Shown here: positions 13,189-48,468 of the stretch, one piece after another
Layout: each line of letters begins with the position of its first letter
How positions within the stretch are numbered: the stretch's first letter is position 1
Translations under genes and position numbers: made by a program
Origin: an uncultured SAR86 cluster bacterium
Lineage (GTDB): Bacteria; Pseudomonadota; Gammaproteobacteria; Magnimaribacterales; D2472
Length of the DNA stretch: 64,000 nt
NCBI GenBank assembly: GCA_902528215.1
Contig: CABZRR010000001.1
Coordinates: 128,620-192,619 of the forward strand
Direction: 5' to 3'
The notes under the pieces: generated by a model
What the model was told of the DNA's origin: nothing
Seen by the model: the letters and a program-made list of their open reading frames with translations, nothing else
Databases searched by the model: none

Positions 13189-13232
13189 AGCCTTCATTTT
13201 TTGATAAAGGCTTATGATTTATAGAATTATTT

Positions 13233-15563
13233 CTAGTATCTGTACTTGAATCTTAAACCAATAACTCTTGGCCTATTTTGAGTCCTTCTAATATCTCCAA
13301 AATCGTCATACCTAGATAAATATCCATTTTCATCAGTAAGATTGCTAATAAATACTTCCATAGACCTATTATTTGATTCAACGCCAACTCTTATGTTAGC
13401 TATAGCATATGAAGGCAACTTTAGTTCATTGGCCTGACTGGTGTACCTATCACCTGTATATGAGTAATCAACGGACACATATCCGGGCATACCAAAAATA
13501 CTTAACACCTTATCTAATCCTAAAACATAAGAGAGCTCGGGAACGTATGCAAGTCTATTTCCTGAATTAGCCTGAAGAACTCCAGACACATCATAGTAAT
13601 CCTCTGACAAAGAAGGATCGTTAGAAACAACATAGCCTGACAAAGTTAATGAGTCATTAGGTTTGTAGGTCGCATCAAGTTCAAGACCATTAATTTCTGC
13701 ATTACCCACATTATCAACAAAGGCTACCGTGGAATATGCCAAATTGTATGTGGTAGATTGAAAATCACTCCAATCCATCATGAAGTATGCCCCATTGAGA
13801 ATAAGTTTTCCGTCTGCAAGGGTTGACTTGAATCCAAGCTCAAGACTTTCTAAATAGTCAGAGTCATATGTTTCAGGAATAAAAGCAGTTTGAGCGGGCC
13901 TAACTCTGTTAATACCACTGGCTCTGAAGCCTTCCGAATAAGTACCATACAACATCACGTCTTCATTTAAGTTATGGGCTATATTAACTTTTGGTACAAC
14001 TCCTGAATCACTAGAATTAAATACTTTGTCTACTCCATCAAATACACCAAAGTAGCCATCTTTTGCATTTACCATGGTATCTTGATCGTATGATCTAAAA
14101 CCTAAGGTTAACTTGGTTTTATCATTAAGGTTGAAGCGACCTTCTCCAAAAAAGGCCTCTGTATCCTCCTCTCTTGTGTTATCAAGATTCCACCACTGAC
14201 CATTGGGTACATTCCATGACAAATTACCTGGATTTGATCCAGGCCATAGGTAAGCAATTTCATAGTCTCTGTTAGAAGATTCGCTGAATGCTCCAAGGAT
14301 CCACTGAAAGCCTGAGTCTCCTTTTGATTGAATTCTTACTTCGTAAGAATCTCTTTCATGATTATCGATTTGCGTGTATGACATTCTTGGATCCTGACAA
14401 CCTGAGATATTGTAATAATAATAGTAGTCATAATAGTCACAGGTATAGGTGGGACCATCGTAGTTATAATATTCTACATATTCTGAATAGTCATATGTGT
14501 ATTCAACATCCCTTTCAAAAGAAGAAGCAGTAAATATATATTCAACGTTATCGTTTAAATCACCGCTCAATGATAATGAAATTTGACTAAAATCATCATC
14601 AAAATACTCTTCATTAAATCGAGAATTTGATCTCGGACCGACAGCTTCATCAGTCTCCCAAGATCCACCAAATTCAGAAGCTTGATCAAGCATAGAAAGA
14701 TCAAGGTTTTGCCCCATGATTTCTGAGGCTAATCTAATTCTATATCCACTTTTATTAAGTTCATTGTAATCATCTTCTGCAAATGCGCTGTTATCAATTG
14801 TATAGCCGCTATTTGTGAAAGTTTTGGTTGAAAGTTCGTTATCAATCCAACCTCCATCTTGAAGATCATATGCGCTGACTCTTACAGCGGTATTAGCACC
14901 AAGAGGCATATTTACGTATGCTTCTAACGATTGATCATTTGATCCATCTTCAATAGATCCATACTCAATGTCAAAACCATAATCTACAGAAGTAACATCG
15001 GGTTTTTTTGTAATTATTTTTATGTTTCCAGAAGTTGAGCTTGAACCATATAAAGTTCCTTGTGGCCCACTTAGAATTTCCACTCGCTCAACATCAAAAA
15101 CATGTAAATCAGGCGTTTGACCAATTGTTGTTAAAGGCTGCTCATCTAAATATAAGGCTGTTGTTGAGGCGGCTCCTGAAGGATTTCCAAATCCACCATC
15201 TGAGACACCTCTGATATAAAAAGTAGAATTACCTGGCCCGCCGGCATCCAATGTAACTGCTGGAGATAGACTTGCAATATCATCAAGACCTTTAACATTT
15301 TTGAGGTCCAATTCAGCTGCACCTATTGCTTGAACGCTCATCGGAACGTCTTGCAGATTTTCTGACCTTTTACTCGCTGTTACAACAACTTCCTCTAAAT
15401 TCTCCTGAGCAGAAACATTTGATGATTGAGCTACGCCAAGTCCAAGTGTTAAGGCACCAAGATATGGCAAAGCAAAATTATTGTCTTTAAATATGTCCCT
15501 TAATATATGAGTTACTGGATCTGCTTTTTTTTCAAAAAGCGGTTTTAAATAAATAGATGACAT
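13233..15563 (-). CDS. TonB-dependent receptor
   Basis: Signal region, plug-domain motifs (EEVVVTASKRSENLQDVPMSVQAI, VERVEILSGPQGTLYGSSSTSG) and a C-terminal beta-barrel ending RFKYRY. Confidence 0.85.
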   Translation of the reverse strand: MSSIYLKPLFEKKADPVTHILRDIFKDNNFALPYLGALTLGLGVAQSSNVSAQENLEEVVVTASKRSENLQDVPMSVQAIGAAELDLKNVKGLDDIASLSPAVTLDAGGPGNSTFYIRGVSDGGFGNPSGAASTTALYLDEQPLTTIGQTPDLHVFDVERVEILSGPQGTLYGSSSTSGNIKIITKKPDVTSVDYGFDIEYGSIEDGSNDQSLEAYVNMPLGANTAVRVSAYDLQDGGWIDNELSTKTFTNSGYTIDNSAFAEDDYNELNKSGYRIRLASEIMGQNLDLSMLDQASEFGGSWETDEAVGPRSNSRFNEEYFDDDFSQISLSLSGDLNDNVEYIFTASSFERDVEYTYDYSEYVEYYNYDGPTYTCDYYDYYYYYNISGCQDPRMSYTQIDNHERDSYEVRIQSKGDSGFQWILGAFSESSNRDYEIAYLWPGSNPGNLSWNVPNGQWWNLDNTREEDTEAFFGEGRFNLNDKTKLTLGFRSYDQDTMVNAKDGYFGVFDGVDKVFNSSDSGVVPKVNIAHNLNEDVMLYGTYSEGFRASGINRVRPAQTAFIPETYDSDYLESLELGFKSTLADGKLILNGAYFMMDWSDFQSTTYNLAYSTVAFVDNVGNAEINGLELDATYKPNDSLTLSGYVVSNDPSLSEDYYDVSGVLQANSGNRLAYVPELSYVLGLDKVLSIFGMPGYVSVDYSYTGDRYTSQANELKLPSYAIANIRVGVESNNRSMEVFISNLTDENGYLSRYDDFGDIRRTQNRPRVIGLRFKYRY

Positions 15564-15651
15564 GTCTTCCCCCCGAAATACATTTAACTTATTATTTTAT
15601 AATGTAATTAGGTCTTAAACACAAGTTTGTTGGCACATTAAAACTGCCAGC

Positions 15652-16689
15652 TTAATTTTTAAAGTCAAATAACAGATTTATTAAAAAATCGTTGCCCCAT
15701 TCATTAGCGATTGAAAAATTGCACTCTGAATAATTGAGGTTTGATTGAGGTGGAGAGTAACAAAACCCTACATTTCTATCAATGCCAGGCCAAAAATGTC
15801 CTGCATCTTTATTTAAAAGGCTAATAACCTGAACATCATTCTTGCATCCTGAAGCTATATTTTTTTCAAAATCATCATATAAATTAAAATCTGATTGTTT
15901 GAAGGTCTTGCATTCAAATTGTTTTGACCAGGCATTAAATGTATCCTCCATTGGCTCATAAAAATAGCCGTCTGATGCTCTGATATTAATTGGAGGAACG
16001 ACCGTGTCTTTAACGCTTCCATAGATAATAAAATTCACTGGCTCTTTAGGAATGCAACTAAGGTCTTTTTGTTGCATGCCTACAACATTTACAACACCTT
16101 TAAAAACAGTTGGATATTTACAGGCCAGTGCTTGGGCCATCATGCCACCATTGCTCATGCCTAATAAATATATATCTCTAATCTTATGATCTTCCCTTGC
16201 GCGATCAATTATTTTTTTTATGAAGCCAAGGTCATCGCTGCAGCTTGCCCAAGCACAGCGGCCTCCTCCACTACAATTAGGATACTGGGGATAAATATCT
16301 GCATCTATAGCACATATTTCACCATTTGGTGTTTGGGTCCTTGAGCCTGCCAGATCATTCCAAGAGGAAACAAATGAGCTAGGATCATCCTCAATGCTAT
16401 TAAAGTAAAGCCCTTGTGGGTAAATTGCTAAAAATTTATATTTGTCTGCTGCATCATTAAATCCGCCAGTGGTTTGCTTTTCAAATCCGGTAGCTGTTCC
16501 TGTATAACCATGGATGCCAATAAATAAATCAACTTCATTTTTTAGATCTAGGTCAACTGGAATATATTTTAGGTAAGTTCTATTGATTGATTCATGATCT
16601 ATCGCATGCTCTGTCATTGACTCTGATAGCACCGATAAAGACAAGCAAAGCAAAGCTAAGGTGTTAATTTTTTTGCTAATTAAATTCAC
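15652..16689 (-). CDS. Secreted alpha/beta-hydrolase esterase (PHB-depolymerase/LpqC-like family)
   Basis: Signal peptide and a nucleophile elbow GMSNGGMM in the context YLLGMSNGGMMAQALACKYP. It lies adjacent to the TonB-dependent receptor. Confidence 0.6.
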   Translation of the reverse strand: MNLISKKINTLALLCLSLSVLSESMTEHAIDHESINRTYLKYIPVDLDLKNEVDLFIGIHGYTGTATGFEKQTTGGFNDAADKYKFLAIYPQGLYFNSIEDDPSSFVSSWNDLAGSRTQTPNGEICAIDADIYPQYPNCSGGGRCAWASCSDDLGFIKKIIDRAREDHKIRDIYLLGMSNGGMMAQALACKYPTVFKGVVNVVGMQQKDLSCIPKEPVNFIIYGSVKDTVVPPINIRASDGYFYEPMEDTFNAWSKQFECKTFKQSDFNLYDDFEKNIASGCKNDVQVISLLNKDAGHFWPGIDRNVGFCYSPPQSNLNYSECNFSIANEWGNDFLINLLFDFKN

Positions 16690-16754
16690 TTTTTTAAATC
16701 TACTCTACGGCAGAGCACTCTTCTCAAGAAAACTTCTCATTTTTGTACTTTCCA

Positions 16755-17015
16755 TTAAAAGTTATTTGCTTTAAACAATATATATCCTGAAATGAACTCG
16801 CCTAAGAAAGTAATTACTGTTATTAGAAGCCCAACAATTAAATAGAATTTATATGATTTGGATTTTGCTTTATGCTCATTCCATCCAATTAACAAATACA
16901 CAAGGCCCAAAATATATAAAGATAATGGAGAGAAATAATTATCTAAGTATATTAATAGAATGGACAATGCGAGCCCAACAACAGCGGTAATATGAAGAAA
17001 CTTGAGCATAAACAA
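16755..17015 (-). CDS. Small membrane protein, hypothetical
   Basis: 86 aa with three hydrophobic helices. No motif. Confidence 0.35.
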   Translation of the reverse strand: MFMLKFLHITAVVGLALSILLIYLDNYFSPLSLYILGLVYLLIGWNEHKAKSKSYKFYLIVGLLITVITFLGEFISGYILFKANNF

Positions 17016-17041
17016 TACTATACTTTAGTATCTAACTCGTT

Positions 17042-17728
17042 TCATCGTCTTGATAGAATAACTATCCAACGACCAAGGTTTAAAATGTCGGCTAGCGCAG
17101 CCGAAACATACGTAAGGGCTGCTGCCCTCAGAATGTTGTTAACGGCTCTTTCATTTGACTGTGATACGTAATTCCCTTCCCTCAATATAGGAAGTGCTTT
17201 GGAAAAACTTGCATCAAATTCAATCGGCAGAGTCACTGCATGAACCATCATGCGGGCGATAAATCCGGATAGCCCAACGACAAGCAACAAAGAAAATGGC
17301 ATTGGATGCCGAGTAATAATACCGATCACTGGTGATAAAGAAATAATTAAAGCACTCCAACGGGCAACCTTGTCAATAACGGGAACCATCTTTGTTCTAG
17401 TGGCCAGACGTTTATCACCTTGCTGATCCTGAATGGCATGTCCAACCTCGTGTGCGGCAATTGCGATTGCTGTTAACGATTTGGATTCATAGTGCTCTCG
17501 CAAAAGCCTAACTTTTTTTTCAATTGGATCATAATGATCTCCCAACTCAGTTACTTCGACGGTCACATCTTTTAAAGAAAATCGCTCAATCAAATGCTTA
17601 GCAAGTTCTCCTCCCGTGCCAGGCATTTCAGGCTTTGCAGTTGAATACCTCCTCATAACCAGCTTCACCCATAAAGATGGCCCAAATATTAGTGCTAGAA
17701 CTATGAGCGCGCCGGCTGCTAAAACCAT
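17042..17728 (-). CDS. Zinc metallopeptidase (YpfJ/YugP-like, Zn_peptidase_2 family)
   Basis: HEVGHAIQ zinc-binding motif, N-terminal TM helix and C-terminal TM helices. G+C is markedly higher than in the flanking genes. Confidence 0.75.
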   Translation of the reverse strand: MVLAAGALIVLALIFGPSLWVKLVMRRYSTAKPEMPGTGGELAKHLIERFSLKDVTVEVTELGDHYDPIEKKVRLLREHYESKSLTAIAIAAHEVGHAIQDQQGDKRLATRTKMVPVIDKVARWSALIISLSPVIGIITRHPMPFSLLLVVGLSGFIARMMVHAVTLPIEFDASFSKALPILREGNYVSQSNERAVNNILRAAALTYVSAALADILNLGRWIVILSRR

Positions 17729-17813
17729 GTTTGATACTCCTAAAATTTATTCTGCAAACGAAACAAATTTGCGACTATAAAGTTTATATGGTGATTTAAT
17801 TTTATTTTAAAAG

Positions 17814-18611
17814 TTATCCATGTTTTTTTACTAAATTTATCGCCCAGTTTATTACATTTGGATTTTTCTCAGTATCAAAAATGAATTCTTGCCCAAACCC
17901 TTTATAGAAGATTTTAGATTCCTTCTCATTTTCCCACTGCATTCTATTTAAAAATAATCCTTCTGTATTTGAGAAATATTCTGAGGGCATTTTCCATCTA
18001 GATCGTGTTTTGTTTGCTTCGGTCAGAATTAAATCATCATGTGTTTTTTTAAATAAACCATGGCCCCTGTCAAAAACCTTTTTTTCATTTATCTCTAAAG
18101 TTTTTTTTCCTACATAGATAGTATTATTTGAAAATTTAGAGGTGTCTCCAAATCCATGAGGATGAGCAATGTTCTTTTCTTTGAGATATGTGATAATTGC
18201 CTCTGATCCTTCTATGATTTCTTTTATTTGTAACCATCCAAACAGATGATGTAAATCTCTTCCTTTAATTGAAAAGTTCTTAAACCATCCAAAGAATAGA
18301 AATAAGTCTCCTGGACCAACACTATTATTTTTTAATTCAGTTTGAGAGGAATTTGCTTGACCGAAAATACCGATATCTTCATTTAGAAGTGGGTCATTGT
18401 GACAATAATCTGAGGGTTTGATCTTAGATGACACCTCTTTTAATAATTCTGTGCCTGATGTTCCACAAAAGTTTAAATCTTCATACTTTTTTGGAGAGGG
18501 ATGATCTTGAGGAATCGGTATAGAAAAAATTCTTCCATCACTGAATATAGGTGAGGCGCTACCCCCTGCTTTAGCATCAAATCCTTTTCTGCTTAGAATT
18601 ATTCTTTTCAA
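17814..18611 (-). CDS. Hypothetical protein, possibly Nmad3-family nucleotide-modification-associated protein
   Basis: The N-terminus MKRIILSRKGFDAKAGGSASPIFSDGRIFSIPIP matches my recollection of the Nmad3 family start (LSRKGFDS..GG.PSPI.PDG...S.PIP). This was not verified by any search. Confidence 0.4.
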   Translation of the reverse strand: MKRIILSRKGFDAKAGGSASPIFSDGRIFSIPIPQDHPSPKKYEDLNFCGTSGTELLKEVSSKIKPSDYCHNDPLLNEDIGIFGQANSSQTELKNNSVGPGDLFLFFGWFKNFSIKGRDLHHLFGWLQIKEIIEGSEAIITYLKEKNIAHPHGFGDTSKFSNNTIYVGKKTLEINEKKVFDRGHGLFKKTHDDLILTEANKTRSRWKMPSEYFSNTEGLFLNRMQWENEKESKIFYKGFGQEFIFDTEKNPNVINWAINLVKKHG

Positions 18612-18694
18612 CTTATGAAATTAAAAAAACATGCCTATAAATCTTTTCCACTGTAATGGATTAAATTTGAAATCACTTTCATTGTCTTAATATA

Positions 18695-18985
18695 TTAAGT
18701 TATAAGCTTTGGTATTATTCCTAGTTGAGCCAGAATACCAAAGATAATTAATAATATAATGCTAGTAAGCGTTTTAAGGTTCTTCTGTTGAATAAATTCA
18801 AATAAGTCGTCTTCTATAAATTTTCTTATCCAATCATCAGCTTTACCCATCAACTTAACAGCTTTTCTTGTCCATTTGTCAGTCACATCAATTATCAACA
18901 ATGAAAATGCTGCAATGATAAGCCACACAAAACCATTAAGAGTCATGTCGATTAGCCAACCTATAATCACCCAATTTATTTCCAT
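18695..18985 (-). CDS. Small membrane protein, hypothetical
   Basis: 96 aa with two hydrophobic segments. Confidence 0.35.
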   Translation of the reverse strand: MEINWVIIGWLIDMTLNGFVWLIIAAFSLLIIDVTDKWTRKAVKLMGKADDWIRKFIEDDLFEFIQQKNLKTLTSIILLIIFGILAQLGIIPKLIT

Positions 18986-19020
18986 TATTAAACCCTAAAA
19001 AATCTAATTTTATTTTTGTA

Positions 19021-19036
19021 GTCCACCGTCACTGAG
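19021..19036 (-). repeat. glmS-terminus repeat copy G5 (gtccaccgtcactgag), most distal and degenerate
   Basis: In glmS orientation it reads TCA GTG ACG GTG GAC TAC = SVTVD-Y, so the stop is lost. It shares an exact 15-mer tccaccgtcactgag with copy G2. Confidence 0.8.
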
Positions 19037-19154
19037 AATATTAAACTATCTACTTTTATTAATCCTCATGCTCATTATACTTACAGTACTTTTTTTTAAA
19101 CTTTTTCCTATCCATTTTTTTAAAAGAAAAGTGTTTATCTAGTATCATATCGCC

Positions 19155-20270
19155 ATGAAAATAAATTCATTCACGCCGCCAAATAGGATTTTAATGGGTC
19201 CAGGTCCATCTGACGTTTGTGACAGAGTTTTGGAAGCTATGGCTAGACCAACTATTGGTCATCTAGATCCTATTTTTATAAAAATGATGGATGAAACAAA
19301 ACAGTTACTTCAATATGCATTTCAAACACAGAATGAGTTAACTTTTGCCTTATCGGCTCCTGGTATGGCAGGTATGGAATCTTGCTTTGCAAATCTTGTT
19401 GAGCCTGATGACAAAGTAATTATTGCTAAAAATGGGTTCTTTGGCGAAAGAATGAAGGAAAATGTCGAACGATTTGGTGGAATACCCATAGTTATTGATG
19501 ATGAATGGGGAACAAAAGTAGACTTAAATAAAATTGAATCAGCATTAAATGAACACAAGGATGCAAAAATTGTTGCTTCAGTTCATGCTGAAACCTCTAC
19601 TGGGGCTCTTACAGATCCAGAATCAATTACAAAATTAGCACATGACCATGGATGTTTATCAATTGTAGATACTGTAACTGGTTTGGCTGGAGTTCCTTTA
19701 AAGGTAGATGAATGGGGAATTGACGCAATTTATTCTGGTACACAGAAGTGTTTGTCCGCTTCTCCTGGTTTATCGCCAATTAGTTTTAGTGATGATGCAA
19801 GAGAAAAGATTAAGAATAGAAAATCAAAAGTGAAGAGTTGGTTTCATGATTTAAACTTAATCATGTCATATTGGGAAGGGGAAGGTGGCCGATCTTATCA
19901 TCATACTGCACCAATAAATTCATTATATGGACTGCATGAAGCCTTGATAATGTTAAGTGAAGAAGGCCTAGAAAATTCATGGAAAAGACATAAAAAAAAC
20001 CATCTTCATCTCCGAGAGGGCTTAGAAAAATTAAATATAGAATTTTTAGTAAAAGAAGAGGACCGATTGCCTCAGTTAAATGCTATCTATATTCCTGATG
20101 GTGTAAATGATCTTGAATCAAGACAAAGACTTTTAAACGAATTTAATCTCGAAATTGGAGCTGGTCTCGGAGTTCTTGCAGGAAAAGTTTGGCGCATTGG
20201 ACTTATGGGACAATCTTCCAATAAAAAGAATATTGAATATTGTTTAAACTCTCTTGCGGAAGTAATTTAA
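19155..20270 (+). CDS. Class V aminotransferase (alanine-glyoxylate / serine-pyruvate aminotransferase family)
   Basis: 371 aa. PLP-lysine context YSGTQKCL and family-typical GPGPS and HAETSTG motifs. Confidence 0.8.
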   Translation: MKINSFTPPNRILMGPGPSDVCDRVLEAMARPTIGHLDPIFIKMMDETKQLLQYAFQTQNELTFALSAPGMAGMESCFANLVEPDDKVIIAKNGFFGERMKENVERFGGIPIVIDDEWGTKVDLNKIESALNEHKDAKIVASVHAETSTGALTDPESITKLAHDHGCLSIVDTVTGLAGVPLKVDEWGIDAIYSGTQKCLSASPGLSPISFSDDAREKIKNRKSKVKSWFHDLNLIMSYWEGEGGRSYHHTAPINSLYGLHEALIMLSEEGLENSWKRHKKNHLHLREGLEKLNIEFLVKEEDRLPQLNAIYIPDGVNDLESRQRLLNEFNLEIGAGLGVLAGKVWRIGLMGQSSNKKNIEYCLNSLAEVI

Positions 20271-20427
20271 AAATTATAAAGCCGCCCTCTTCCAATCACT
20301 GTTCATACCTGGTTTAAATTTAACAGAGTCTCATTAACCAAATTCACTTTATCGATATATTTTTGTAAATAGAAGATTACCAATTAAGTCGGAATTAACT
20401 GTAATTTTTTAATTTAATTTGAATCTT

Positions 20428-21078
20428 CTAGTTAATCTGATTTCCATTAAAGTCGTACTCCTCGATCACCCTAAGTATAGTTCCGTTTTGATATTCTATT
20501 TTTGACTTAAGTTGTCCGTTTTGATGGTATGTCACAGATATACCATGTAATTCTTCCTTATTGTTATATACTTCCTTCGTTGCTATTTGACCGTTGTCAA
20601 AATATGAAAATGCTGTAAGAGTAACGGTCACACCATTTTTAACATTTTCTTTCCAGCTTACTTGACCATATTCATAGCCAATCCATTCACCCTCGTCAAC
20701 ACCATTAACTCTATTTCCTTCCATGGATGGAAAGCCTTCCATAAACTCAATATATTTTCCGTGCTCAAGTCCATTTTTATATCCAGTCTTGAATGAAAAT
20801 AAAGTCCCACAGCCCTCATATGCCTCAAAAGGGCCATGAAGAAGCCCCCTTTTGTATGACCCTGCCTCTAATGCACAAAATCCATATTCATCCTCATAGG
20901 TTACAAATCTTCCAGAAAATGGAGTATTAGTATTTACCTGATATTTCAAACCCTGTCTTTCAACAAGTGATGACGAATTTATAGATTTATCCGCATACAT
21001 GATATACAAGGCTTCATTAGCCTGTATATTTAGACTTAAAGAAACAAATAAAAATGCGTTTCTTAAAAGTATCTTCAT
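20428..21078 (-). CDS. Secreted MORN-repeat-variant protein (YwqK-like)
   Basis: Signal peptide plus repeated G.....Y..NG / YKNGLEHGKY units. Confidence 0.55.
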   Translation of the reverse strand: MKILLRNAFLFVSLSLNIQANEALYIMYADKSINSSSLVERQGLKYQVNTNTPFSGRFVTYEDEYGFCALEAGSYKRGLLHGPFEAYEGCGTLFSFKTGYKNGLEHGKYIEFMEGFPSMEGNRVNGVDEGEWIGYEYGQVSWKENVKNGVTVTLTAFSYFDNGQIATKEVYNNKEELHGISVTYHQNGQLKSKIEYQNGTILRVIEEYDFNGNQIN

Positions 21079-21142
21079 ATTTTACTCACACAACTTAATA
21101 GTACTATTATCCATTTTAACGCTATCTTTGAAATATTTAAAA

Positions 21143-21163
21143 TTATTCCGCCGTGACTGACTT
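21143..21163 (-). repeat. glmS-terminus repeat copy G4 (degenerate: tccgccgtgactgac)
   Basis: In glmS orientation it reads AAG TCA GTC ACG GCG GAA TAA = KSVTAE-stop, compared with KSVTVE-stop in glmS. Codon usage differs but the peptide and the stop position are kept. Confidence 0.7.
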
Positions 21164-21249
21164 GAATGAAACAGAGAATTAGATTTATTATCCTGAAATC
21201 CTTTGTGAAAACTCTGATATAACTTTATATATTTCTGTTCCAATTTAAA

Positions 21250-21669
21250 TTATATTTCGAAATTATTTAGTTGCTCTAAGGGGTCTTTTCCAAATCTGTT
21301 ATCTCCATCAGTTCCCTTTGAACAGTACCATATAAGTAAAGGAATCATTCCTATGATGGTAAATATTATTAAGTACCACCAACCTGACTTGTCAACGTCA
21401 TGAAGTCTTCTTATGACTAGACATGTTGAAGCAATAATAATAAAAATTTGCACTGGCAACATTACAATTGCAAGCACAATATCCATTGCGGTTTCTGAAA
21501 ATCCTGCAGTTACAGATAAAAAACCAATTACAAGACCAACAATAAGTCCCACAGGAAAACTTGCTAAAGTTACAAAGAGAGTTGCCCACCAATATTCTGA
21601 TCTACTTGATCTGCTTCTAAAATCATTCCATTTTAAAAAATATGATTTAACTGCCTGTGTAAAATTCAT
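21250..21669 (-). CDS. DUF805 family inner-membrane protein
   Basis: RSSRSEYWW and RRLHDVDKSGWWYLI motifs typical of DUF805 (YhaH/YhaI-like). Confidence 0.75.
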   Translation of the reverse strand: MNFTQAVKSYFLKWNDFRSRSSRSEYWWATLFVTLASFPVGLIVGLVIGFLSVTAGFSETAMDIVLAIVMLPVQIFIIIASTCLVIRRLHDVDKSGWWYLIIFTIIGMIPLLIWYCSKGTDGDNRFGKDPLEQLNNFEI

Positions 21670-21704
21670 AAAAATTCTCCTATTTAATTATCTGTTTTGT
21701 TCTT

Positions 21705-21721
21705 CTCCACCGTAACGAAGT
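21705..21721 (-). repeat. glmS-terminus repeat copy G3 (ctccaccgtaacgaagt)
   Basis: Exact 17-mer shared with copy G1. It reads FVTVE followed by K, so the stop is lost. Confidence 0.85.
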
Positions 21722-21766
21722 GTATAAAGGTGTCTACTTATTGGTTTATGAAATTTAATCAAAAAA

Positions 21767-21934
21767 TCAAGGTGCTTCTTTCTCATTATTTTTAATGTAA
21801 ATTTTTCCAAAAATGGCAAATAAACCAAATAAACCAATTAACCACCATTTATAGTCACCTGCATTTAATAAAATAATCGTTACTATTGCTGCACCCCAAA
21901 ATGGTGAATGGAGAATTTGAATTAATTGCCTCAT
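21767..21934 (-). CDS. Small ORF, 55-aa two-helix membrane peptide (hypothetical)
   Basis: Hand-translated: MRQLIQILHSPFWGAAIVTIILLNAGDYKWWLIGLFGLFAIFGKIYIKNNEKEAP. It is below the ORF-track size cutoff. It is the only ORF between repeat copies G2 and G3. Confidence 0.3.
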   Translation of the reverse strand: MRQLIQILHSPFWGAAIVTIILLNAGDYKWWLIGLFGLFAIFGKIYIKNNEKEAP

Positions 21935-21954
21935 TTTTAATTAGACACCTTTAT

Positions 21955-21973
21955 CTACTCCACCGTCACTGAG
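21955..21973 (-). repeat. glmS-terminus repeat copy G2 (cta ctccaccgtcactgag)
   Basis: Reads TCA GTG ACG GTG GAG TAG = SVTVE-stop. This is identical in peptide and stop position to the glmS end but uses different Ser and Val codons. Confidence 0.85.
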
Positions 21974-21992
21974 TAGATTTCTTTGGTGCATT

Positions 21993-22151
21993 TTATTCTT
22001 CCTCTTCAAGTCTACTCCTTCTCTCATCAAGCACCTCTCCTTCAAACTTCCAATTTAAAGGTCCAGCAATTGTTTTCCAATTAAATCCCATTCTATTTGT
22101 TGCAATTAATGCTGCACTAGACAAAGAGTGATCATCATTAAGATTGCTCAT
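21993..22151 (-). CDS. Small ORF, 52-aa acidic-tailed peptide (hypothetical)
   Basis: Hand-translated: MSNLNDDHSLSSAALIATNRMGFNWKTIAGPLNWKFEGEVLDERRSRLEEEE. It is preceded by AGGAGA 8 nt upstream of the ATG. Confidence 0.3.
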   Translation of the reverse strand: MSNLNDDHSLSSAALIATNRMGFNWKTIAGPLNWKFEGEVLDERRSRLEEEE

Positions 22152-22190
22152 TTTGAAATTCTCCTAAATCGTATTTCCAATAAATAAACT

Positions 22191-22898
22191 TTATTTCAAT
22201 AATCCAAATATTTCTGCGGCATCTCTATTAAGAGACCATCCTGAAGATTGAGAGCAGTAACTCATGGTGCGTTTATATAAAAATTCCCCGTCTGTGTTAT
22301 TTAACATCTTTTTCATATAGGAAAGAAGTCGGTCATCTTTTCTAGCACAAGAAATATCATATCTTGAAGAATAGGAATAAGGAGCATGAAACATTAATTT
22401 TCCTCCCTCCGTCATCGATCTGTAATAACCCCCAAGATATGCGGTTGCGCAAGATGAATAACACTCGGCAGTACCTACTAAACGTGTTTTTACCTGCTCA
22501 TCTCTAAATAAACTACCTAACTTGTAACCATCTTCCATGTAACCCCCACCAGAGTTCATGTAAACAATTATTGCTAATCTTATACCGTCAGTATTACGAC
22601 ATCTATTAGGTGAGTCTTCAATTCTATTTAATAGTCTTTCTATTATAAATGGTGTGTCCGGGTTTATTGGACCACTCATTTCAATATGATCGTCATGTTG
22701 AGATCTGTTTTGACAATCTGTTGAATCTATTTGTCTGACGTGTCGAATTTTTAAATTGCTTACTTCTATATTAGAAATTATTTCGTATTTTCCAGAAGTT
22801 AAGTATGAATTAGTACCCAATATATAGTGTTTTGCATAAAGTTCGTTAGCAAAAGAAAAGAAAAGAATGCATGTTAGAAGATATTTATTCATTATCAT
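22191..22898 (-). CDS. Secreted ClpP/SppA-fold-like periplasmic protein (COG3904-like)
   Basis: Signal peptide. The segment VYMNSGGGYMEDGYKLGSLFRDEQVKTRLVGTAECYSSCATAYLGGYYRSM..KLMFHAPY follows the S.GG....lG..iR.....T.v....C.SAC...f.gG..R pattern of that family. Confidence 0.45.
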   Translation of the reverse strand: MIMNKYLLTCILFFSFANELYAKHYILGTNSYLTSGKYEIISNIEVSNLKIRHVRQIDSTDCQNRSQHDDHIEMSGPINPDTPFIIERLLNRIEDSPNRCRNTDGIRLAIIVYMNSGGGYMEDGYKLGSLFRDEQVKTRLVGTAECYSSCATAYLGGYYRSMTEGGKLMFHAPYSYSSRYDISCARKDDRLLSYMKKMLNNTDGEFLYKRTMSYCSQSSGWSLNRDAAEIFGLLK

Positions 22899-22907
22899 AT
22901 TTTAACC

Positions 22908-23141
22908 TTAATTAATCCTAAACTTTGTGATTACTTTAGTATAGGTCTTATTTCTTAATGAAATTCTTTCCTTTCTTTCTTGCATTCTTTTGACATTGCC
23001 ATGAACTTTGGAATTAGACCAAATTTTGTTTGTGTGAGTTTTTATACCAGACCGGTTTAGAAAATCTGAAATTCTTCGATATCCCATGCCTTCTTTGTGC
23101 ATGAACTGGATCAATTTATGAATAGCAATTTGTCTGTTAGT
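22908..23141 (-). pseudogene. Remnant of a serine-recombinase (Recombinase-domain fragment, catalytic N-terminus missing)
   Basis: The stop-to-stop frame TNRQIAIHKLIQFMHKEGMGYRRISDFLNRSGIKTHTNKIWSNSKVHGNV... matches the (v..if.ly.eG.s...Ia..LN..Gi.t.....W....v..il) segment of large serine recombinases. No resolvase catalytic domain and no canonical ATG are present. Confidence 0.45.
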
Positions 23142-23230
23142 TAGTTGTTTAAGAGGTATTAATTTGTTAGTTCTATGAATTAGAGTGAATTCAATAGTTA
23201 TTTTCTGCCGAATTAATGCACCATTCGAAA

Positions 23231-23250
23231 TTACTCCACCGTAACGAAGT
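23231..23250 (-). repeat. glmS-terminus repeat copy G1 (tta ctccaccgtaacgaagt)
   Basis: Reads TTC GTT ACG GTG GAG TAA = FVTVE-stop. It shares 12 nt (ctccaccgtaac) with the true glmS end and 17 nt with copy G3. Confidence 0.85.
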
Positions 23251-23281
23251 TGAATTGGTTGTACCTGTTTTCTTCATTTAG

Positions 23282-24211
23282 TTAACCCTTGAATCCAATC
23301 CAAAACTTTTCAACATAATTATTATCAATTGATAATTTAAGTTCTTCTGTGAATTTATTATTTATTCCTTTCTTTTTCAAAGTTTTAAATAATTTTATGT
23401 TTCTGGTCTTTAGTCTCTCTATCAACTTTTTATTTGGTAATCTATTACTCTTGGAACTATTTTCATTGGGTAATACATATACCAAATTCCACAAGTCATC
23501 TGAATACATATAAGACCATGGAATAACATGATCTATTGAAGGAGTTCCTGAGATTTTTTTTCCAGTCAAAAAACACTCCTTCTTTGGATTTTCTTCGTCA
23601 ATAAATTTTCGAAATTTGTTCAGGTTTCCTCGTTTAGGAAATTGATCTCTATCAACCCCTTTTATTTTTTTTGAAATTCTTGGGGATCCATCCATAGTTT
23701 CTAATTCTTGTGTCCATCGATAATTGATTGAGTTATATAAAATTTCTGAATAAGTTTTTAGAACTCTAGGGTTAATTAATTTTATCTCTCTTTTAGTGAG
23801 GTCATAGTCATAAATTTTGTGTGTTCTACCTCCAAGATTTAAAAATCTTTTACAAACGTCTTTCTTTAAGACTGAACTTATTTTTGTAAACGGGATATCT
23901 ATTTCATTTTCTATTCTTATAAAAGTTTCTTTTTTGAAACCTCTTGATAATTGGTATTCCTTAATTGAATTTTCAACAATTTGTATGATCTCTGGTTTCT
24001 TATTTCTGTTGTGACTTTGATTTAGATTAAAAAATATACACTGATTCCAATAATACTTAAAAATCAATCTTGATAACTCATCAAAATGAATATTTTTTTT
24101 TGGAGATTTTTCACAAGATTCTACAATAGACCTTATCCAAGACATTTTATATGTATTGTCCATTGACCCGTTATTTATCAGATCTAAAACATCTTTTAGA
24201 TAAGGATTCAT
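23282..24211 (-). CDS. HNH endonuclease-domain protein with uncharacterised N-terminal domain
   Basis: C-terminal HNH core PSIDHVIPWSYMYSDDLWNLVYVLPNENSSKSNRLP. The roughly 220-aa N-terminal region (DNTYKMSWIRSIVESC...) was not recognised. The start overlaps the HIT stop (TAATG). Confidence 0.7.
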   Translation of the reverse strand: MNPYLKDVLDLINNGSMDNTYKMSWIRSIVESCEKSPKKNIHFDELSRLIFKYYWNQCIFFNLNQSHNRNKKPEIIQIVENSIKEYQLSRGFKKETFIRIENEIDIPFTKISSVLKKDVCKRFLNLGGRTHKIYDYDLTKREIKLINPRVLKTYSEILYNSINYRWTQELETMDGSPRISKKIKGVDRDQFPKRGNLNKFRKFIDEENPKKECFLTGKKISGTPSIDHVIPWSYMYSDDLWNLVYVLPNENSSKSNRLPNKKLIERLKTRNIKLFKTLKKKGINNKFTEELKLSIDNNYVEKFWIGFKG

Positions 24212-24591
24212 TAATATTTTTGTTTAGTGGGAATAACTCCTCTCACTCCACCTGTTGGATCTTCAACATCATTATGGTATCTCGGGATAATATGTATGTG
24301 TAAGTGATCAACTGTCTGACCACTTACCTCTCCACAATTTATTCCAATATTGAATCCGGGGGGATCAAATTTTTTTACCAAAAATTCTTTTGTTTGAAAA
24401 AGGAGACGGTTGAGTCCAATAACTTCATCGTCAGTTGAATCAAAATAGTTTGAATAAACTCTGTGAGGAACAACGAGACAATGACCTTCACTTACTGGAA
24501 ATTTGTCGAAAATAACAAAACCTGAAGAATTTTCAAAAATACGTTCTCTATTATCTAAAAATGGACTTATAAAATTTCCAGAATTACTCAC
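24211..24591 (-). CDS. HIT (histidine triad) family nucleotide hydrolase/transferase
   Basis: Histidine triad HLHIHIIPR and EGHCLVVP motifs. GTG start 30 nt downstream of the glmS stop. Confidence 0.8.
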   Translation of the reverse strand: MSNSGNFISPFLDNRERIFENSSGFVIFDKFPVSEGHCLVVPHRVYSNYFDSTDDEVIGLNRLLFQTKEFLVKKFDPPGFNIGINCGEVSGQTVDHLHIHIIPRYHNDVEDPTGGVRGVIPTKQKY

Positions 24592-24621
24592 AACTTACCG
24601 TTTTAACTGGTACAACCAAAT

Positions 24622-26448
<1,827 letters not shown>

Positions 26449-26449
26449 A

Positions 26450-27802
26450 CTATTTCTTTTTTTTTGCCCAATCTTCTTTGATAACTTGTTTACCTCGACC
26501 TACAGCCAAAGCATTGTCGGGAACGTCTTTTGTAATTACAGAGCCGGCTCCTACATAAGCACCTTTACCAATATTGACTGGTGCAACTAAGGAAGAGTTT
26601 GTACCAATGAAACTATCTTCACCGATAGTAGTTTTATGTTTATCGGTACCATCGTAATTGCATGTAATGGTTCCGGCGCCAACATTAGTTTTATCGCCAA
26701 TGTTTGCATCGCCTAAGTAAGAAAAATGATTGGCTTTGACGCCATTTCCGAGTTTAGTTTTTTTGGTCTCGACAAAATTACCAATTTTTGCATTATTGCC
26801 TATCTCTGAGCCCTCCCTAATGCGGGCATATGGGCCAATGTTGCAATTCGAACCAATAGATGCTGATGAAAGATGGCTAAATGATTCTATGATCGAATTA
26901 TCTCCAATGAAGACATCTTGTAAAACAACATTTGATTTAATTGTAACGTTATTGCCAAAGGTAACATGGCCTTCCAAAATAACATTGACATCAATAGAAC
27001 AATCTTTTCCTGCAACGACTTTGCCACGAACGTCAACACGAGTTTTATCAATAAGTGTTACTCCTTGTTCTAATAATTTTTCAGCGCTCATTTTTCTTAA
27101 AATTAATTCTAGCTCATGTAATTCATGCTTATTGTTTGCACCCAACACTTCTTCAGGATTTGCTTGAGTACATTTTATTTTAACTCCTTTTCCAGAAAGT
27201 ATCTCCACCAAGTCTGTAAGATAATATTCGTTAGCTGAATTTTGGTTCTTAATTTCTTCTAATGCAGGTCTAAGCAAACTTCCATCAATTAATAAAATAC
27301 CTGTAAAAACCTCTTCAATTTTAAGTTCGTCTTCTGATGCATCTTTTTGCTCTACAATTTTTAAAGCTAAGTTTTGCCCATTTGTAATCACCCTGCCGTA
27401 GCCAGTTGGGTCATTTAATTGCATGGTTAAGAGCGTGCACTCGTGTCCAGAATTTATAAGTCGCTCTATAGTTTTGGAGCTAATCAATGGAACATCGCCA
27501 TACAAAATTAATATTTTTTCATCATCCTTAATCAAATGCGAAGCCATTTTAACTGCATGTGCTGTTCCCAGCTGATCATCTTGATCTGATGTCTTTATAT
27601 TAGGATCGATGTTTGCAATGTGTGTTTTTAAGGTATTTTTTTTATAACCGACAACAATAGTTATATTTTCACTATTCTCTTTTGCAGTTTGAATAACATG
27701 CGAAATTAAAGTTTGTCCCCCAAGGGGTTGCATAACCTTTGGCAAATTAGTGTTCATTCGAGTGCCCTGACCAGCCGCAAGAATAATAGTATGAATATTC
27801 AA
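26450..27802 (-). CDS. glmU: Bifunctional UDP-N-acetylglucosamine pyrophosphorylase / GlcN-1-P acetyltransferase
   Basis: 450 aa. N-terminal ILAAGQGTRM, C-terminal left-handed beta-helix hexapeptide repeats, and synteny atpC-glmU-glmS. Confidence 0.95.
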   Translation of the reverse strand: MNIHTIILAAGQGTRMNTNLPKVMQPLGGQTLISHVIQTAKENSENITIVVGYKKNTLKTHIANIDPNIKTSDQDDQLGTAHAVKMASHLIKDDEKILILYGDVPLISSKTIERLINSGHECTLLTMQLNDPTGYGRVITNGQNLALKIVEQKDASEDELKIEEVFTGILLIDGSLLRPALEEIKNQNSANEYYLTDLVEILSGKGVKIKCTQANPEEVLGANNKHELHELELILRKMSAEKLLEQGVTLIDKTRVDVRGKVVAGKDCSIDVNVILEGHVTFGNNVTIKSNVVLQDVFIGDNSIIESFSHLSSASIGSNCNIGPYARIREGSEIGNNAKIGNFVETKKTKLGNGVKANHFSYLGDANIGDKTNVGAGTITCNYDGTDKHKTTIGEDSFIGTNSSLVAPVNIGKGAYVGAGSVITKDVPDNALAVGRGKQVIKEDWAKKKK

Positions 27803-27834
27803 AACAAATACGAATTAATATAGATACAAGTACC

Positions 27835-28248
27835 TTACTTGTTTTTTCTTAATTTTTGAATGGTTTTGATTCTAGCGGCAGCTTCAGCTAGTTGTGCAGC
27901 TGCTTTGGTGTAATCTAATTCTGACTCTTTGTCTTGCATGTTTTTTTCGGCAAGTTCCTGAGATTTAATGGCTTCAGCCTCATCCATGGATTCAGCTCGT
28001 TCAGCTGTATCAGACAAAAATGTCACCAAATCAGGCTGTATTTCAATAAATCCACCTGAGCAAAAAAAGGTTTTTTCATCATCGCCATTTTGAACTCTCA
28101 CAGGCCCTGGAGCAAGGCCGGTTAGAAGAGGCGTGTGCCCTGGTGCAATGCCTATTTCACCCAAGGATCCGGTTGCAAAGACCATAGTGCCTTCACCAGA
28201 GTAAATTTCCTCACTTGACGAAACTATGCTGACTTTAATAGTGGACAT
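27835..28248 (-). CDS. atpC: F0F1 ATP synthase subunit epsilon
   Basis: 137 aa, in the position after atpD, with typical sequence. Confidence 0.9.
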   Translation of the reverse strand: MSTIKVSIVSSSEEIYSGEGTMVFATGSLGEIGIAPGHTPLLTGLAPGPVRVQNGDDEKTFFCSGGFIEIQPDLVTFLSDTAERAESMDEAEAIKSQELAEKNMQDKESELDYTKAAAQLAEAAARIKTIQKLRKNK

Positions 28249-28251
28249 TAA

Positions 28252-30523
<2,272 letters not shown>

Positions 30524-42497: not shown

Positions 42498-43787
42498 TTG
42501 AAATTTTGGTCTGAATGTGCTGAAAAACTAGAAGCTAAGCTGTCACAAGAAGAATTTAATACATGGATTAAGCCCTTAAGAGCAAATATTCGCGAAAATA
42601 ATTTAGAGATAAGTGCACCGAATGATTTTGTTTTAAATTATGTACAAGAGAATCTCGGACAAATAATAGAAAATCTGGTAAATCAATCTAACGAATCGCT
42701 TAGTGTAAAATTTAAAACACTGGATAAGTCAACATTTGTTGATAAATTAAAAGTTTCTAAACAAAACAAAGCTTCTCTTGTTCAAAACTTTACATTTAAT
42801 AGCTTTGTAGAAGGAAAATCCAATCATATGGCGCTTGCTGCGGCAAAACAAGTGGCAGCTAATCCCAAGGGAGACTATAACCCCCTCTTTATTTATGGTG
42901 GGGTTGGGCTAGGAAAAACACATCTTATGCATGCCGTAGGAAATGAAATACTTAGTGCAGATACCTCAAAAAGGATAGTTTATGTTCATTCTGAAAAATT
43001 TGTAGCAGATATGGTAAAAGCCCTTCAATTGGGGGCTATGAGTGAATTTAAAGAATTTTATAGGAATGCTGATGCCCTATTAATTGATGATATTCAGTTT
43101 TTTGCTGGCAAAGAGCAGTCGCAAGAGGAGTTTTTTCATACATTTAATACTCTTTTAGATAGAAATCATCAAATGGTTCTCACATGTGATAAATATCCAA
43201 AGGAAATAGATGGTCTTGAAGAGCGACTAAAATCAAGGCTTGGTTGGGGATTGCCGGTAATAATTGAGCCTCCTGAGCTCGAGACGCGAGCAGCAGTCTT
43301 GTTAAGTAAGGCTAATTCCATGGGGGTTAAACTACCAAACGATTGTGCTTTCTATATTGCTCAAAGAATTAGATCCAATATTAGAGAGCTTGAAGGGGCT
43401 CTGAAAAGGGTTGTGGCAAACTCAAGGTTTGCTGACCAAGAGATTGATATTCCTTTTGTCAAAGAAGCGCTAAAAGACTTGTTCGTTATATCGGCGAAGA
43501 TGGTAAGCATTGATAATATTCAAAAGACTGTTGCTGAGTATTACAACATTAAACTATCTGATCTTCTTTCAAAGAGAAGAAGCCGATCAATTACTAGACC
43601 AAGACAATTAGCGATGGCCCTTACGAAATCATTAACCAATCACAGTTTACCAGAAATAGGCGAGGCATTTAATGGAAGAGATCACACCACTGTGCTTCAT
43701 GCGTGTAGTAAAATAAAAGAACTGAGAAAAGAAATTCCGTCCCTCGAAGAAGACTACAGAAACCTAAACAGGACACTTACAAACTAA
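42498..43787 (+). CDS. dnaA: Chromosomal replication initiator protein DnaA
   Basis: TTG start preceded by GGAGG (42484-42488). AAA+ Walker [11 protein letters not shown] and a C-terminal DNA-binding domain ([10 protein letters not shown]). Confidence 0.97.
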
Positions 43788-44885: not shown

Positions 44886-44888
44886 GAA

Positions 44889-48468
<3,580 letters not shown>

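Follow-up and report, generated by a model that had tools for sequence, protein, structure and literature searches.

The array downstream of glmS

The 64,000-nucleotide (nt) stretch analysed here, part of contig CABZRR010000001.1 of an uncultured SAR86 cluster bacterium and called the window below, carries a glmS gene (24622..26448, minus strand; 608 aa) followed, in the glmS direction, by an array of short gene cassettes delimited by copies of the last glmS codons. Positions are in window numbering unless an L-number, which designates a comparison locus or contig, is given. The encoded protein is 63–98% identical to the GlmS proteins of relatives taken from one genome per species, all of them SAR86, and ends in KSVTVE-stop (AAA TCA GTT ACG GTG GAG TAG on the minus strand), the attachment target considered here. 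About eight units lie between glmS and a Zn_peptidase_2 gene (17042..17728, minus strand), which in most SAR86 loci is the conserved gene bordering the array distally and stands 0.4 to >8 kb from glmS.

The motif TCCACCGTMAC occurs exactly at 19022, 21706, 21959, 23235 and 24626 of the plus strand, in a single orientation and either at the glmS stop codon or beyond it; no other copy was found within the 64 kb, and 100 dinucleotide-preserving shuffles, used as the chance test for this 11-mer, gave 0 occurrences. An earlier note on this DNA had listed five copies of the glmS end in the same orientation, two exact subtypes among them, a stop codon kept in register in three of the five, and intervening segments of about 1.4, 1.3, 0.25, 0.55 and 2.1 kb. 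All five copies were found where the note places them, in one orientation. Exact matches to the 17-mer CTCCACCGTAACGAAGT lie at 21705 and 23234 and to the 15-mer TCCACCGTCACTGAG at 19022 and 21959, and direct inspection places a degenerate copy (SVTAE-stop) at 21146. The stop is in register in 3/5 displaced copies (23231, 21955, and 21143) and lost at 21702 and 19018, and the segments measure 1374, 1259, 236, 542, and 2108 nt. Beyond that list, a search for the 17-mer with at most three mismatches adds a site at 18646, one of three more decayed junctions, at 18646–18662 (ITVE-K), ∼20306–20314 (core mostly gone between recognisable arms), and ∼17768–17777.

Each proximal cassette of the window has its own inverted-repeat arms, flush against a 16-nt core of the form n-TCN-GTN-AC-N-GTN-GAR. 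All junctions (J) and cassettes are described on the minus strand, from glmS outward. The core at the glmS end (J0, 24625..24640; A-TCA-GTT-AC-G-GTG-GAG) is of attL type, joining a glmS half to the left arm of cassette 1, and the proposed exchange dinucleotide, the AC of its Thr codon, lies at 24632–24633. Cassette 1 (23250..24624) encodes, by Pfam, a HIT protein (24211–24591) and an HNH_4 protein (23282–24211). Its left arm TAGATTTGGTTGTACCAGTT (24605–24624, glmS stop codon included; also written GATTTGGTTGTACCAGTT) and right arm AACAGGTACAACCAATTC (23250–23269) match in register at 16/18 positions, and this arm type is also found in L012, L060, L033, and L030. The HIT-family gene and the 309-aa HNH_4 endonuclease-like gene (together 23282–24591, minus strand) overlap stop to start at 24211, and the pair could be a defence or toxin module.

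J1 (23234..23249) reads C-TTC-GTT-AC-G-GTG-GAG followed by TAA (FVTVE-stop). Cassette 2 beyond it (21974..23233; arms TGGTGCATT and AATGCACCA) holds a 68-aa open reading frame (ORF) with a Recombinase-like helix-turn-helix (22908–23114), a 235-aa protein without assigned function (22191–22898), and a 52-aa ORF (21993–22151); its start recurs at 83% identity in L028 (array position 1) and L051 (position 3). After J2 (21958..21973; C-TCA-GTG-AC-G-GTG-GAG then TAG, SVTVE-stop) comes cassette 3 (21721..21957), with 236 nt between cores and a single 55-aa membrane ORF (21767–21934). The arms of this cassette, ATAAAGGTGTCTA and TAGACACCTTTAT (also written ATAAAGGTGTCTAATTA and TAAGTAGACACCTTTAT), match at 16/17 positions, and the cassette recurs at 94% identity in L004 (array position 6) and at 78% in L032, L041, and L050. 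J3 (21705..21720) has the core C-TTC-GTT-AC-G-GTG-GAG followed by AAG, the stop being lost, and leads into cassette 4 (21162..21704), which encodes a DUF805 protein (21250–21669) between the arms AAACAGATAATTAAAT and ATCTAATTCTCTGTTT.

From J4 (21146..21161) outward the junctions are decayed. J4 reads G-TCA-GTC-AC-G-GCG-GAA then TAA (SVTAE-stop), and cassette 5a (20315..21145), which encodes a MORN-repeat protein (20428–21078), has decayed arms. At J4b (20292..20332) the core is largely deleted, leaving a right arm GAGACTCTGTTAAATTTA (20315–20332), a residue AACCAGGTA (20306–20314), and a left arm TATGAACAGTGATTGG (20292–20307) that overlaps the residue by two bases; only the DNA distal to J4b is common to L004, L007, L010, and L011. 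Cassette 5b (19037..20307) carries a class-V aminotransferase gene on the opposite strand (19155–20270, plus) and is followed by J5 (19021..19036; C-TCA-GTG-AC-G-GTG-GAC then TAC, SVTVD-Y without a stop) and cassette 6 (18663..19020), which has a 96-aa membrane ORF (18695–18985). J6 (18646..18662) reads AATCC-ATT-AC-A-GTG-GAA then AAG (ITVE-K), and the right arm before it, GAAAGTGATTTCAAATTT (18663–18680), is similar to the arm that adjoins the large serine recombinase (LSR) gene of L117. Cassette 7 (17778..18645) encodes an Nmad3-domain protein (17814–18611) and is present in L060. At J7 (17748..17799) the core is deleted, and a right arm TTAAATCACCATATAAACTTTA is followed by TAGTCGCAAA and then by TTTGTTTCGTTTGCAGAATA, the sequence found directly after glmS in L003, L016, L024, and L062.

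Two side observations concern this distal part. No segment is shared more widely than the one with the 96-aa membrane ORF of cassette 6, which is present in at least 25 SAR86 loci at 77–88% nt identity and at varying distance from glmS; in L053 the ORF lies beyond the Zn-peptidase gene, on its far side. The sequence (TAG)TTTCGTTTGCAGAATTA at 17748–17767, just upstream of the Zn-peptidase start codon, stands directly after glmS in several SAR86 genomes (L003, L016, L024, L056, L062, and L097), and may be the ancestral right half of an unoccupied site or a very common arm type.

J0–J3 are thus intact save for the stop lost after J3, J4–J7 are degenerate, and the arms decay in parallel, the distal units keeping vestiges only; the increase of decay with distance from glmS that had been suggested is seen in window junctions and arms alike. 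In L010, the closest relative (98% GlmS identity), the array corresponds to that of the window from the aminotransferase outward only, the proximal cassettes being different. L010 has also lost the Nmad3 unit, of which the last ∼32 nt remain, so that the cassette-level polymorphism between relatives that the earlier note had proposed looking for does exist. The loss is an 808-bp deletion (L010, 14655–14670) that starts inside J6 and stops 32 nt short of the Nmad3 stop codon. It is an ordinary deletion rather than a site-specific excision, and it shows a decay route of distal cassettes.

No recombinase or transposase family was found in Pfam scans of 40 window ORFs save a weak Recombinase match (E 3e-4) of the 68-aa ORF in cassette 2, and a tblastn search of the window with the LSR of L050 matched this ORF only; the array had also been described as lacking an intact integrase, and it does. 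Because the array holds no LSR, only this ORF, the window units are non-autonomous and comparable to pseudo-SCC elements, the recombinase-less relatives of the staphylococcal cassette chromosome (SCC). A derivation of the 68-aa ORF from an LSR was rejected, since the two are 24% identical over 33 residues only and the ORF is kept as an intact small ORF in other arrays. Its orthologues (window copy 22908–23114, minus strand) are intact in L028 and L051 (81–85%) and in L011, L012, and L075 (∼50%), apparently always as the first ORF of a cassette. By these comparisons it is a free-standing small protein, which might act as a directionality factor or regulator. An RNA element or tRNA target was ruled out as well, with no Rfam match in 16900–26500 and no tRNA or tmRNA in 12000–30000.

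Spread across SAR86 and sharing of cassettes

We examined copies of the terminus across the SAR86 glmS set, 80 species-representative loci, using the VTVE pattern GT.AC.GT.GA[GAC], in which only codon positions 1 and 2 are fixed. This strict expression is blind to decayed copies, and false positives in the Zn-peptidase gene (KDVTVE) were removed. When the count was limited to the 64 loci with ≥ 3 kb downstream of glmS, one to eight extra copies were present after glmS, on the glmS strand, in 55, and reiteration of the terminus is therefore a clade-wide property. Copy density downstream of glmS was 0.234 per kb, compared with 0.0034 per kb on the reverse strand (∼70-fold). Displaced copies vary mainly at wobble positions, most are preceded by a Ser codon, and 139 of 154 keep the stop in register, so the frame-preserving likeness to the glmS end noted in the window persists when more copies are considered. 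A repeat dispersed over the genome was ruled out: the window has no copy elsewhere, no forward-strand copy lies upstream of the glmS end in 79 loci, and reverse-strand matches are rare.

One displaced copy stands apart. In L024 (12050–12095), where the insert before it measures only ∼255 nt, a further 24 nt of the glmS reading frame (RNLAKSVTVE-stop) stand where a cassette would have its right arm.

The distribution of the copies bears on whether mobile elements are needed at all, that is, whether chance, or local duplication or gene conversion of the glmS tail, could have produced the repeats. The longer duplicated tail of L024 is what such an origin would leave; yet the shuffles produced no copy, the ∼70-fold enrichment over 80 loci is specific to strand and side, the genes between the repeats are unrelated, and attP forms of the site were recovered (see below). 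Taken together, these observations leave an origin without mobile elements hardly any probability.

Most of the cassettes themselves are small (median ∼0.65 kb), compact, composed of one ORF in the glmS direction, and devoid of a recombinase, in line with the comparison to integron-sized cassettes made in the earlier note. Array ORFs run with glmS in 207 cases and against it in 32. Among 118 small cassettes, 90 have one forward ORF; the median gap is 33 nt from the core to its start and 41.5 nt from its end to the next core, and the median coding fraction is 0.78. Since the ORF nearly fills the space between cores, there is little room for a promoter. Promoter-like sites were not enriched in the window array (40 vs 36.5 expected), and a scan of the window found no intergenic terminators between cassettes on the glmS strand.

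Clustering of 150 inter-core segments gave 124 families, 109 of them singletons. Where cassettes did pair across genomes (45 pairs aligned over ≥ 80% of both members), 36 pairs occupied different ordinal positions in their arrays, and nt identity between the cassettes exceeded that between the glmS genes by >5 points in 40 of 41 pairs. Near-identical cassettes (95–100% nt) lie at different array positions in genomes whose glmS genes are only 65–77% identical. A 457-nt cassette, for example, is 100% identical between L004 (position 3) and L021 (position 1), with glmS 67.5% identical, and a ∼1.55-kb cassette is 98–99% identical among L014, L023, L028, L052, L067, and L068, with glmS at 66–77%. 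At the level of sequence, these comparisons demonstrate that single cassettes are shared horizontally.

Sharing of this kind is difficult to reconcile with the view that full-length LSR elements or prophages integrated one after another at glmS and decayed in place, leaving the small units as deletion remnants with no mobility of their own. LSR elements do integrate at the glmS end (next section), some small cassettes have arms in common with them, the distal window junctions and arms are decayed, and ordinary deletion has occurred inside the L010 array, all as expected of remnants. However, the same units of 236–1600 nt recur at 95–100% identity with the same core boundaries but different neighbours and positions, in genomes with glmS at 65–77%, and independent deletions would hardly produce 124 families with matched arms of their own, as each would have to spare both ∼20-bp ends. 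We therefore regard decay in place as an unlikely origin of the cassettes.

Site geometry, exchange point, and recombinase

In the glmS direction, what directly follows each core starts with the stop codon and is the reverse complement of the sequence ending 4 nt before the next core. Arm complementarity reached ≥ 12/14 in 69 of 151 inter-core segments, in an identical register in 62 of the 69. Symmetry spans positions 3–19 after the Glu codon (0.8–0.98 vs 0.35–0.6 expected from column composition) and falls to chance level from position 21. The arms are strongly unlike between cassettes (e.g. AAACCCCACCTGT / ACAGGTGGGGTTT and CACCTACCCCC / GGGGGTAGGTG); the commonest pair is AAATCACTGTT / AACAGTGATTT.

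Joined head to tail, a cassette yields a site of ∼54 bp composed of the right arm (∼17–19 bp), n-TCN-GTN, AC, N-GTN-GAR, and the left arm (∼17–19 bp, stop codon first), two-fold symmetric with 7 nt either side of the non-palindromic AC of the Thr codon. On circularisation, cassette 1 of the window would thus carry the junction right arm-core-own left arm, AACAGGTACAACCAATTCAACTTCGTTAC-GGTGGAGTAGATTTGGTTGTACCAGTT. The arms that face each other at a junction of the array derive from different cassettes and do not pair; the two halves of the palindrome flank each cassette. Arm diversity combined with symmetry could reflect many LSR specificity classes, a structural constraint, or the homogenisation of quasi-palindromes.

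The point of exchange was located by a wobble linkage test on junction pairs from different genomes, with the glmS ends themselves excluded. Pairs sharing only the upstream arm agree at the left variable positions (0.76/0.73/0.56 vs a background of 0.32/0.31/0.28) and show no agreement at the right ones (0.32/0.35/0.57 vs 0.32/0.29/0.48), and pairs sharing only the downstream arm give 0.27/0.29/0.26 on the left and 0.48/0.54/0.80 on the right. The switch in linkage falls between the wobble base of the first Val codon and that of the Thr codon; it brackets AC and localises exchange, on sequence evidence, to 2–4 nt around it. An LSR element designated P0020, described below, is consistent with this, its attP reading GTT-AC-A GTG GAG, its attL GTC-AC-A GTG GAG, and its attR GTT-AC-G GTT GAA or GTT-AC-G GTG GAA. 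As wobble linkage and the attP, attL, and attR bases agree, exchange is placed at or immediately around AC.

With exchange inside the Thr codon, everything from the Thr wobble base through Val and Glu to the stop codon (N-GTN-GAR-stop) would come from the incoming element, which explains why the right half of the core can still serve as a coding end. After integration the left half is not translated; that it nonetheless keeps the TCN GTN pattern suggests recognition of these positions by an enzyme indifferent to the wobble bases.

Only one recombinase was found among 239 array ORFs (80 loci plus the window), a 551-aa LSR in L050. It is the last gene of a 6-kb unit, and a core lies 28 nt past its stop codon. 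Its homologues form a large family in marine and other metagenomes, with 539 metagenome hits in all, and a second LSR sample, from a metagenome scan with an LSR alignment, added 80 further loci. Among the LSR loci retrieved, a core follows the LSR stop codon at 9–170 nt in 38 LSR variants that are 32–97% identical to the L050 LSR and come from AT-rich and GC-rich hosts; L085–L100 pair LSR and adjoining core in the same way as L050, L081, and L084. In L081 the order is glmU, glmS, a 9-kb element ending in the LSR, a core, and more cassettes, and L084 is alike. In all eight contigs that show both ends of a recombinase-bearing element (L050, L081, L093, L094, L108, L114, L140, and L157), that element is the first unit after glmS.

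For one such LSR, P0020/P0026, the different types of att site were recovered. It belongs to a conserved element of 6–7 kb whose attL (glmS end plus TAAATTTATAAGGCAATT) and attR are found on L093, L094, and L108. An intact attP, CAAATTGTCTTATAAATTTA GTCC GTT AC A GTG GAG TAAATTTATAAGGCAATT, is present on L099 and L100 (2267–2362 in the latter), where it leads into the element's own left-end genes, and these contigs therefore represent a circular or tandem form. They are an example of what the earlier note had proposed seeking, an element with its recombinase beside an attP. The attR flank taaggaaaggtttctcggttgatc of L108, L109, and L092 resembles the flank directly after glmS in L022, L019, and L029, taken as the unoccupied-site type, so attP, attL, attR, and the unoccupied attB type are all on record for one element. 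The same LSR adjoins at least eight different downstream neighbours. More attP-like sites occur on L111, L122, L135, L136, and L172, and an intact attP lies on L188, a 15-kb contig predicted to be viral in IMG/VR.

Searches of reference phage and plasmid collections returned no LSR >30% identical (25–30% at most). Viral contigs gave no match when searched with one LSR and, with the LSR alignment, distant relatives only, L188 among them. LSR relatives at 29–38% identity, many of them on GC-rich or non-SAR86 contigs, carry the SVTVE-codon core and palindromic arms beside the gene (L135, L136, L138, L140, L157, L160, L164, L171–L180, and L188); targeting of glmS codons by this LSR clade thus extends well beyond SAR86. 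In L181–L183 and L186 (IMG/VR), TCC ATC ACN GTN GA (SITVE) takes the place of SVTVE ∼60–90 nt after the LSR stop, and this core may be a variant matched to hosts with a different GlmS terminus.

Among the conserved genes shared by the LSR elements (6–9 kb) is one for a 174-aa REP_ORF2-G2P-like (rolling-circle Rep) protein (30.8 bits against a threshold of 27.8), which lies at 1199–1723 in L093, 3049–3579 in L081, and 1060–1584 in L085 and is also present in L094 and L096; the others, about ten, match no known family. Once excised, the element may replicate in the form of a small circle.

Such a protein, which implies single-stranded intermediates, would fit a site that works as a folded single strand, with the 16-nt core in the loop of a hairpin as in integron attC or the attP of CTX phage, recognised by a structure-specific recombinase or serving as single-strand origin for the rolling-circle Rep. 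The arms do covary strongly between cassettes though their sequences differ. Against this, arm mismatches show no G:T excess on either strand (20 vs 34, of 122), the hairpin could form only in the excised form, and exchange maps to the symmetry centre, as in double-stranded serine or tyrosine core sites, not at the stem base as in attC. The sole recombinase consistently linked to the site is an LSR, a family that acts on duplex DNA, and no integron integrase was found in the array or flanking ORFs scanned. We consider a folded site improbable.

Our preferred reading is that the region is an accretion array of non-autonomous integrative cassettes at the att site of an LSR clade that targets the last codons of glmS, and we put its probability at roughly 0.78. 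A circular element would integrate inside glmS by strand exchange at the central AC of the Thr codon, bringing a replacement N-GTN-GAR-stop, so that GlmS would retain its ...SVTVE end and the old terminus would come to lie at the distal boundary of the insert. Further insertions, each again at the junction next to glmS, would stack the cassettes, the oldest outermost and decaying. The recombinase would read the non-degenerate bases (codon positions 1 and 2) of a universally conserved peptide, leaving the wobble positions free to drift. Small cassettes may be moved in trans, or carried along, by visiting LSR elements of 6–9 kb. That LSRs mobilise the cassettes in one of these two ways, and that cassette expression comes from glmS read-through, we rate slightly above even odds.

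The core of this scheme had been proposed in the earlier note as repeated site-specific integration within the last glmS codons, with each element supplying a surrogate terminus and displacing older scars outward. The first part is supported by an autonomous element with this very site, recovered both integrated and as attP, the second by exchange mapped inside the Thr codon, where the element supplies N-GTN-GAR-stop, and the third by the first place of LSR elements after glmS in 8/8 two-ended contigs together with the rise of decay with distance.

Several observations weigh against the preferred reading. The window has no LSR, nor have 79 of the 80 species-representative SAR86 loci, and no attP junction was found for any recombinase-less cassette, the search of viral contigs for the commonest arm type being negative. 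Canonical LSRs join attP to attB alone, and since an occupied glmS end is of attL type, further addition there departs from this rule; the long-tailed copy of L024 is not what simple attP × attB recombination with exchange at AC would produce. The arms also vary widely: only about a quarter of cassette arms, in a limited sample, are ≥ 15/20 identical to an LSR-adjoining arm, and one recombinase is not expected to read all of them.

Comparison with known systems

We class the array with a known kind of system, serine-recombinase integrative elements at the 3' end of a conserved gene; what is unusual is clade-wide, integron-like miniaturisation in an abundant uncultured marine lineage. By analogy, the mechanism appears closest to SCC and pseudo-SCC accretion at rlmH, and the architecture resembles that of integrons and of clusters of attC sites lacking integron-integrases (CALIN).

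The SCC insertion site lies at the 3' end of rlmH. The ccr recombinases, which are of the serine family, depend on a central dinucleotide, have the conserved rlmH gene as their target, and use non-canonical sites, and SCC islands have imperfect direct repeats at their borders and include recombinase-less pseudo-SCC and composite islands (PMC10581047). The SAR86 array shares with SCC (rlmH/orfX, Ccr) the serine-family recombinase, the conserved housekeeping gene, the imperfect direct repeats, and the occurrence of recombinase-less and composite islands. It differs in its target, the SVTVE-stop codons of glmS, and in its hosts, free-living streamlined marine Gammaproteobacteria and other taxa. 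Its units are integron-sized (median ∼0.65 kb, one ORF) rather than 15–60 kb, number up to eight or more per genome, and each have their own arm sequence.

Integrons and CALIN likewise have small, compact, mostly single-ORF cassettes in one orientation at a fixed entry point, with very diverse cargo, palindromic recombination sites of variable sequence, and, in most arrays, no recombinase in cis. In SAR86, however, the palindrome is split by the cassette and exchange maps to its centre, whereas integron attC sites stay intact between cassettes and exchange at one edge. The SAR86 entry site, moreover, is coding sequence that needs restoration, and the associated enzyme is a serine recombinase. 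No array ORF, and none of the flanking ORFs scanned, matched Phage_integrase or IntI, and the SAR86 array has no intact attC between cassettes and no GTTRRRY core.

A stronger version of the comparison is that the SAR86 glmS locus is a serine-recombinase-based functional analogue of the integron: a clade-wide, oriC-proximal platform of promoterless single-gene cassettes that would be read through from glmUS and moved in trans by transient LSR elements via half-att sites whose non-wobble bases are read. We hold this tentatively, with the odds somewhat against it. If true, the covarying arms of each cassette pose a new recognition problem, requiring many specificity classes or structure-assisted recognition, and the origin of the cassettes becomes a question parallel to that of integron cassettes.

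Tn7 also exploits the conserved 3' coding end of glmS as a safe universal target. Because glmS is the classic attTn7 target, transposition downstream of glmS directed by a TnsD-like protein has to be weighed as the builder of the array; TnsD, too, recognises the conserved C-terminal coding sequence of glmS and tolerates wobble changes. Tn7, however, uses TnsABC+D, inserts past the stop codon with a 5-bp duplication, and does not replace the terminus, and none of these features is seen in the SAR86 array. There are no Tns genes among the Pfam matches in the array, exchange maps inside the Thr codon, with the terminus replaced, and the cassettes have no common transposon ends, their arms differing from one to the next. 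The contrast with Tn7 drawn in the earlier note is apt, and we give Tn7-like transposition next to no weight.

A tycheposon preprint reports tyrosine recombinases in 910 of 937 elements (bioRxiv 10.1101/2020.12.28.424599). Tyrosine-integrase islands at tRNA and tmRNA genes, the tycheposons of Prochlorococcus included, resemble the SAR86 array in that the target is rebuilt from element sequence, displaced fragments mark the boundaries, and tandem remnants occur in streamlined marine bacteria; in SAR86, by contrast, the target is protein-coding, the recombinase is of the serine family, and the units are much smaller and mostly non-autonomous. Large serine integrases of phages (phiC31, Bxb1, A118, and SPbeta type) have the same domain set (Resolvase, Recombinase, and Zn_ribbon_recom), a short quasi-palindromic att, and an attP beside the integrase gene. 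Large serine integrase sites are put at ∼40–50 bp (PMC12286644), and the ∼54 bp of the SAR86 site come close to this. Unlike those of phage integrases, SAR86 insertions recur at an occupied site and combine many unrelated arms with one core. A full-text literature search that included tycheposon and marine-satellite work found no description of SAR86 glmS arrays or of glmS-targeting LSRs, although its coverage was incomplete and an earlier description elsewhere is possible.

SAR86 is among the most abundant uncultured bacterial groups of the surface ocean, with a small streamlined genome and poorly understood gene exchange. The glmS locus offers a concrete, sequence-defined exchange route, with a fixed entry in an essential gene at which dozens of unrelated small genes are stacked. 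The cargo, which includes HIT/HNH, DUF805, methyltransferase-like, restriction-modification, and membrane proteins, is swapped between lineages ∼65% identical at glmS, suggesting that an integron-like cassette economy can rest on a serine recombinase. A whole LSR clade, from marine and freshwater samples and from AT-rich and GC-rich hosts, appears to target the SVTVE-stop codons of glmS. In practical terms, these would be natural LSRs with a target in nearly all bacteria, and the terminus copies could be a marker for flexible gene content in SAR86 populations.

The chromosomal setting adds a further likeness to SCC. On the other side of glmS lie glmU and then ORFs resembling the atp operon, parAB, gidAB, mnmE, yidC, dnaA, dnaN, recF, and gyrB by ORF size and order alone. 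The dnaA-dnaN-recF-gyrB-like ORFs (42498–47899), assigned in this way, are ∼18 kb from the array, and this reading of the flanking ORFs places the array in the oriC neighbourhood. The rlmH gene is likewise near oriC (PMC10581047), as the SAR86 array is near its dnaA-like ORF (42498–43787).

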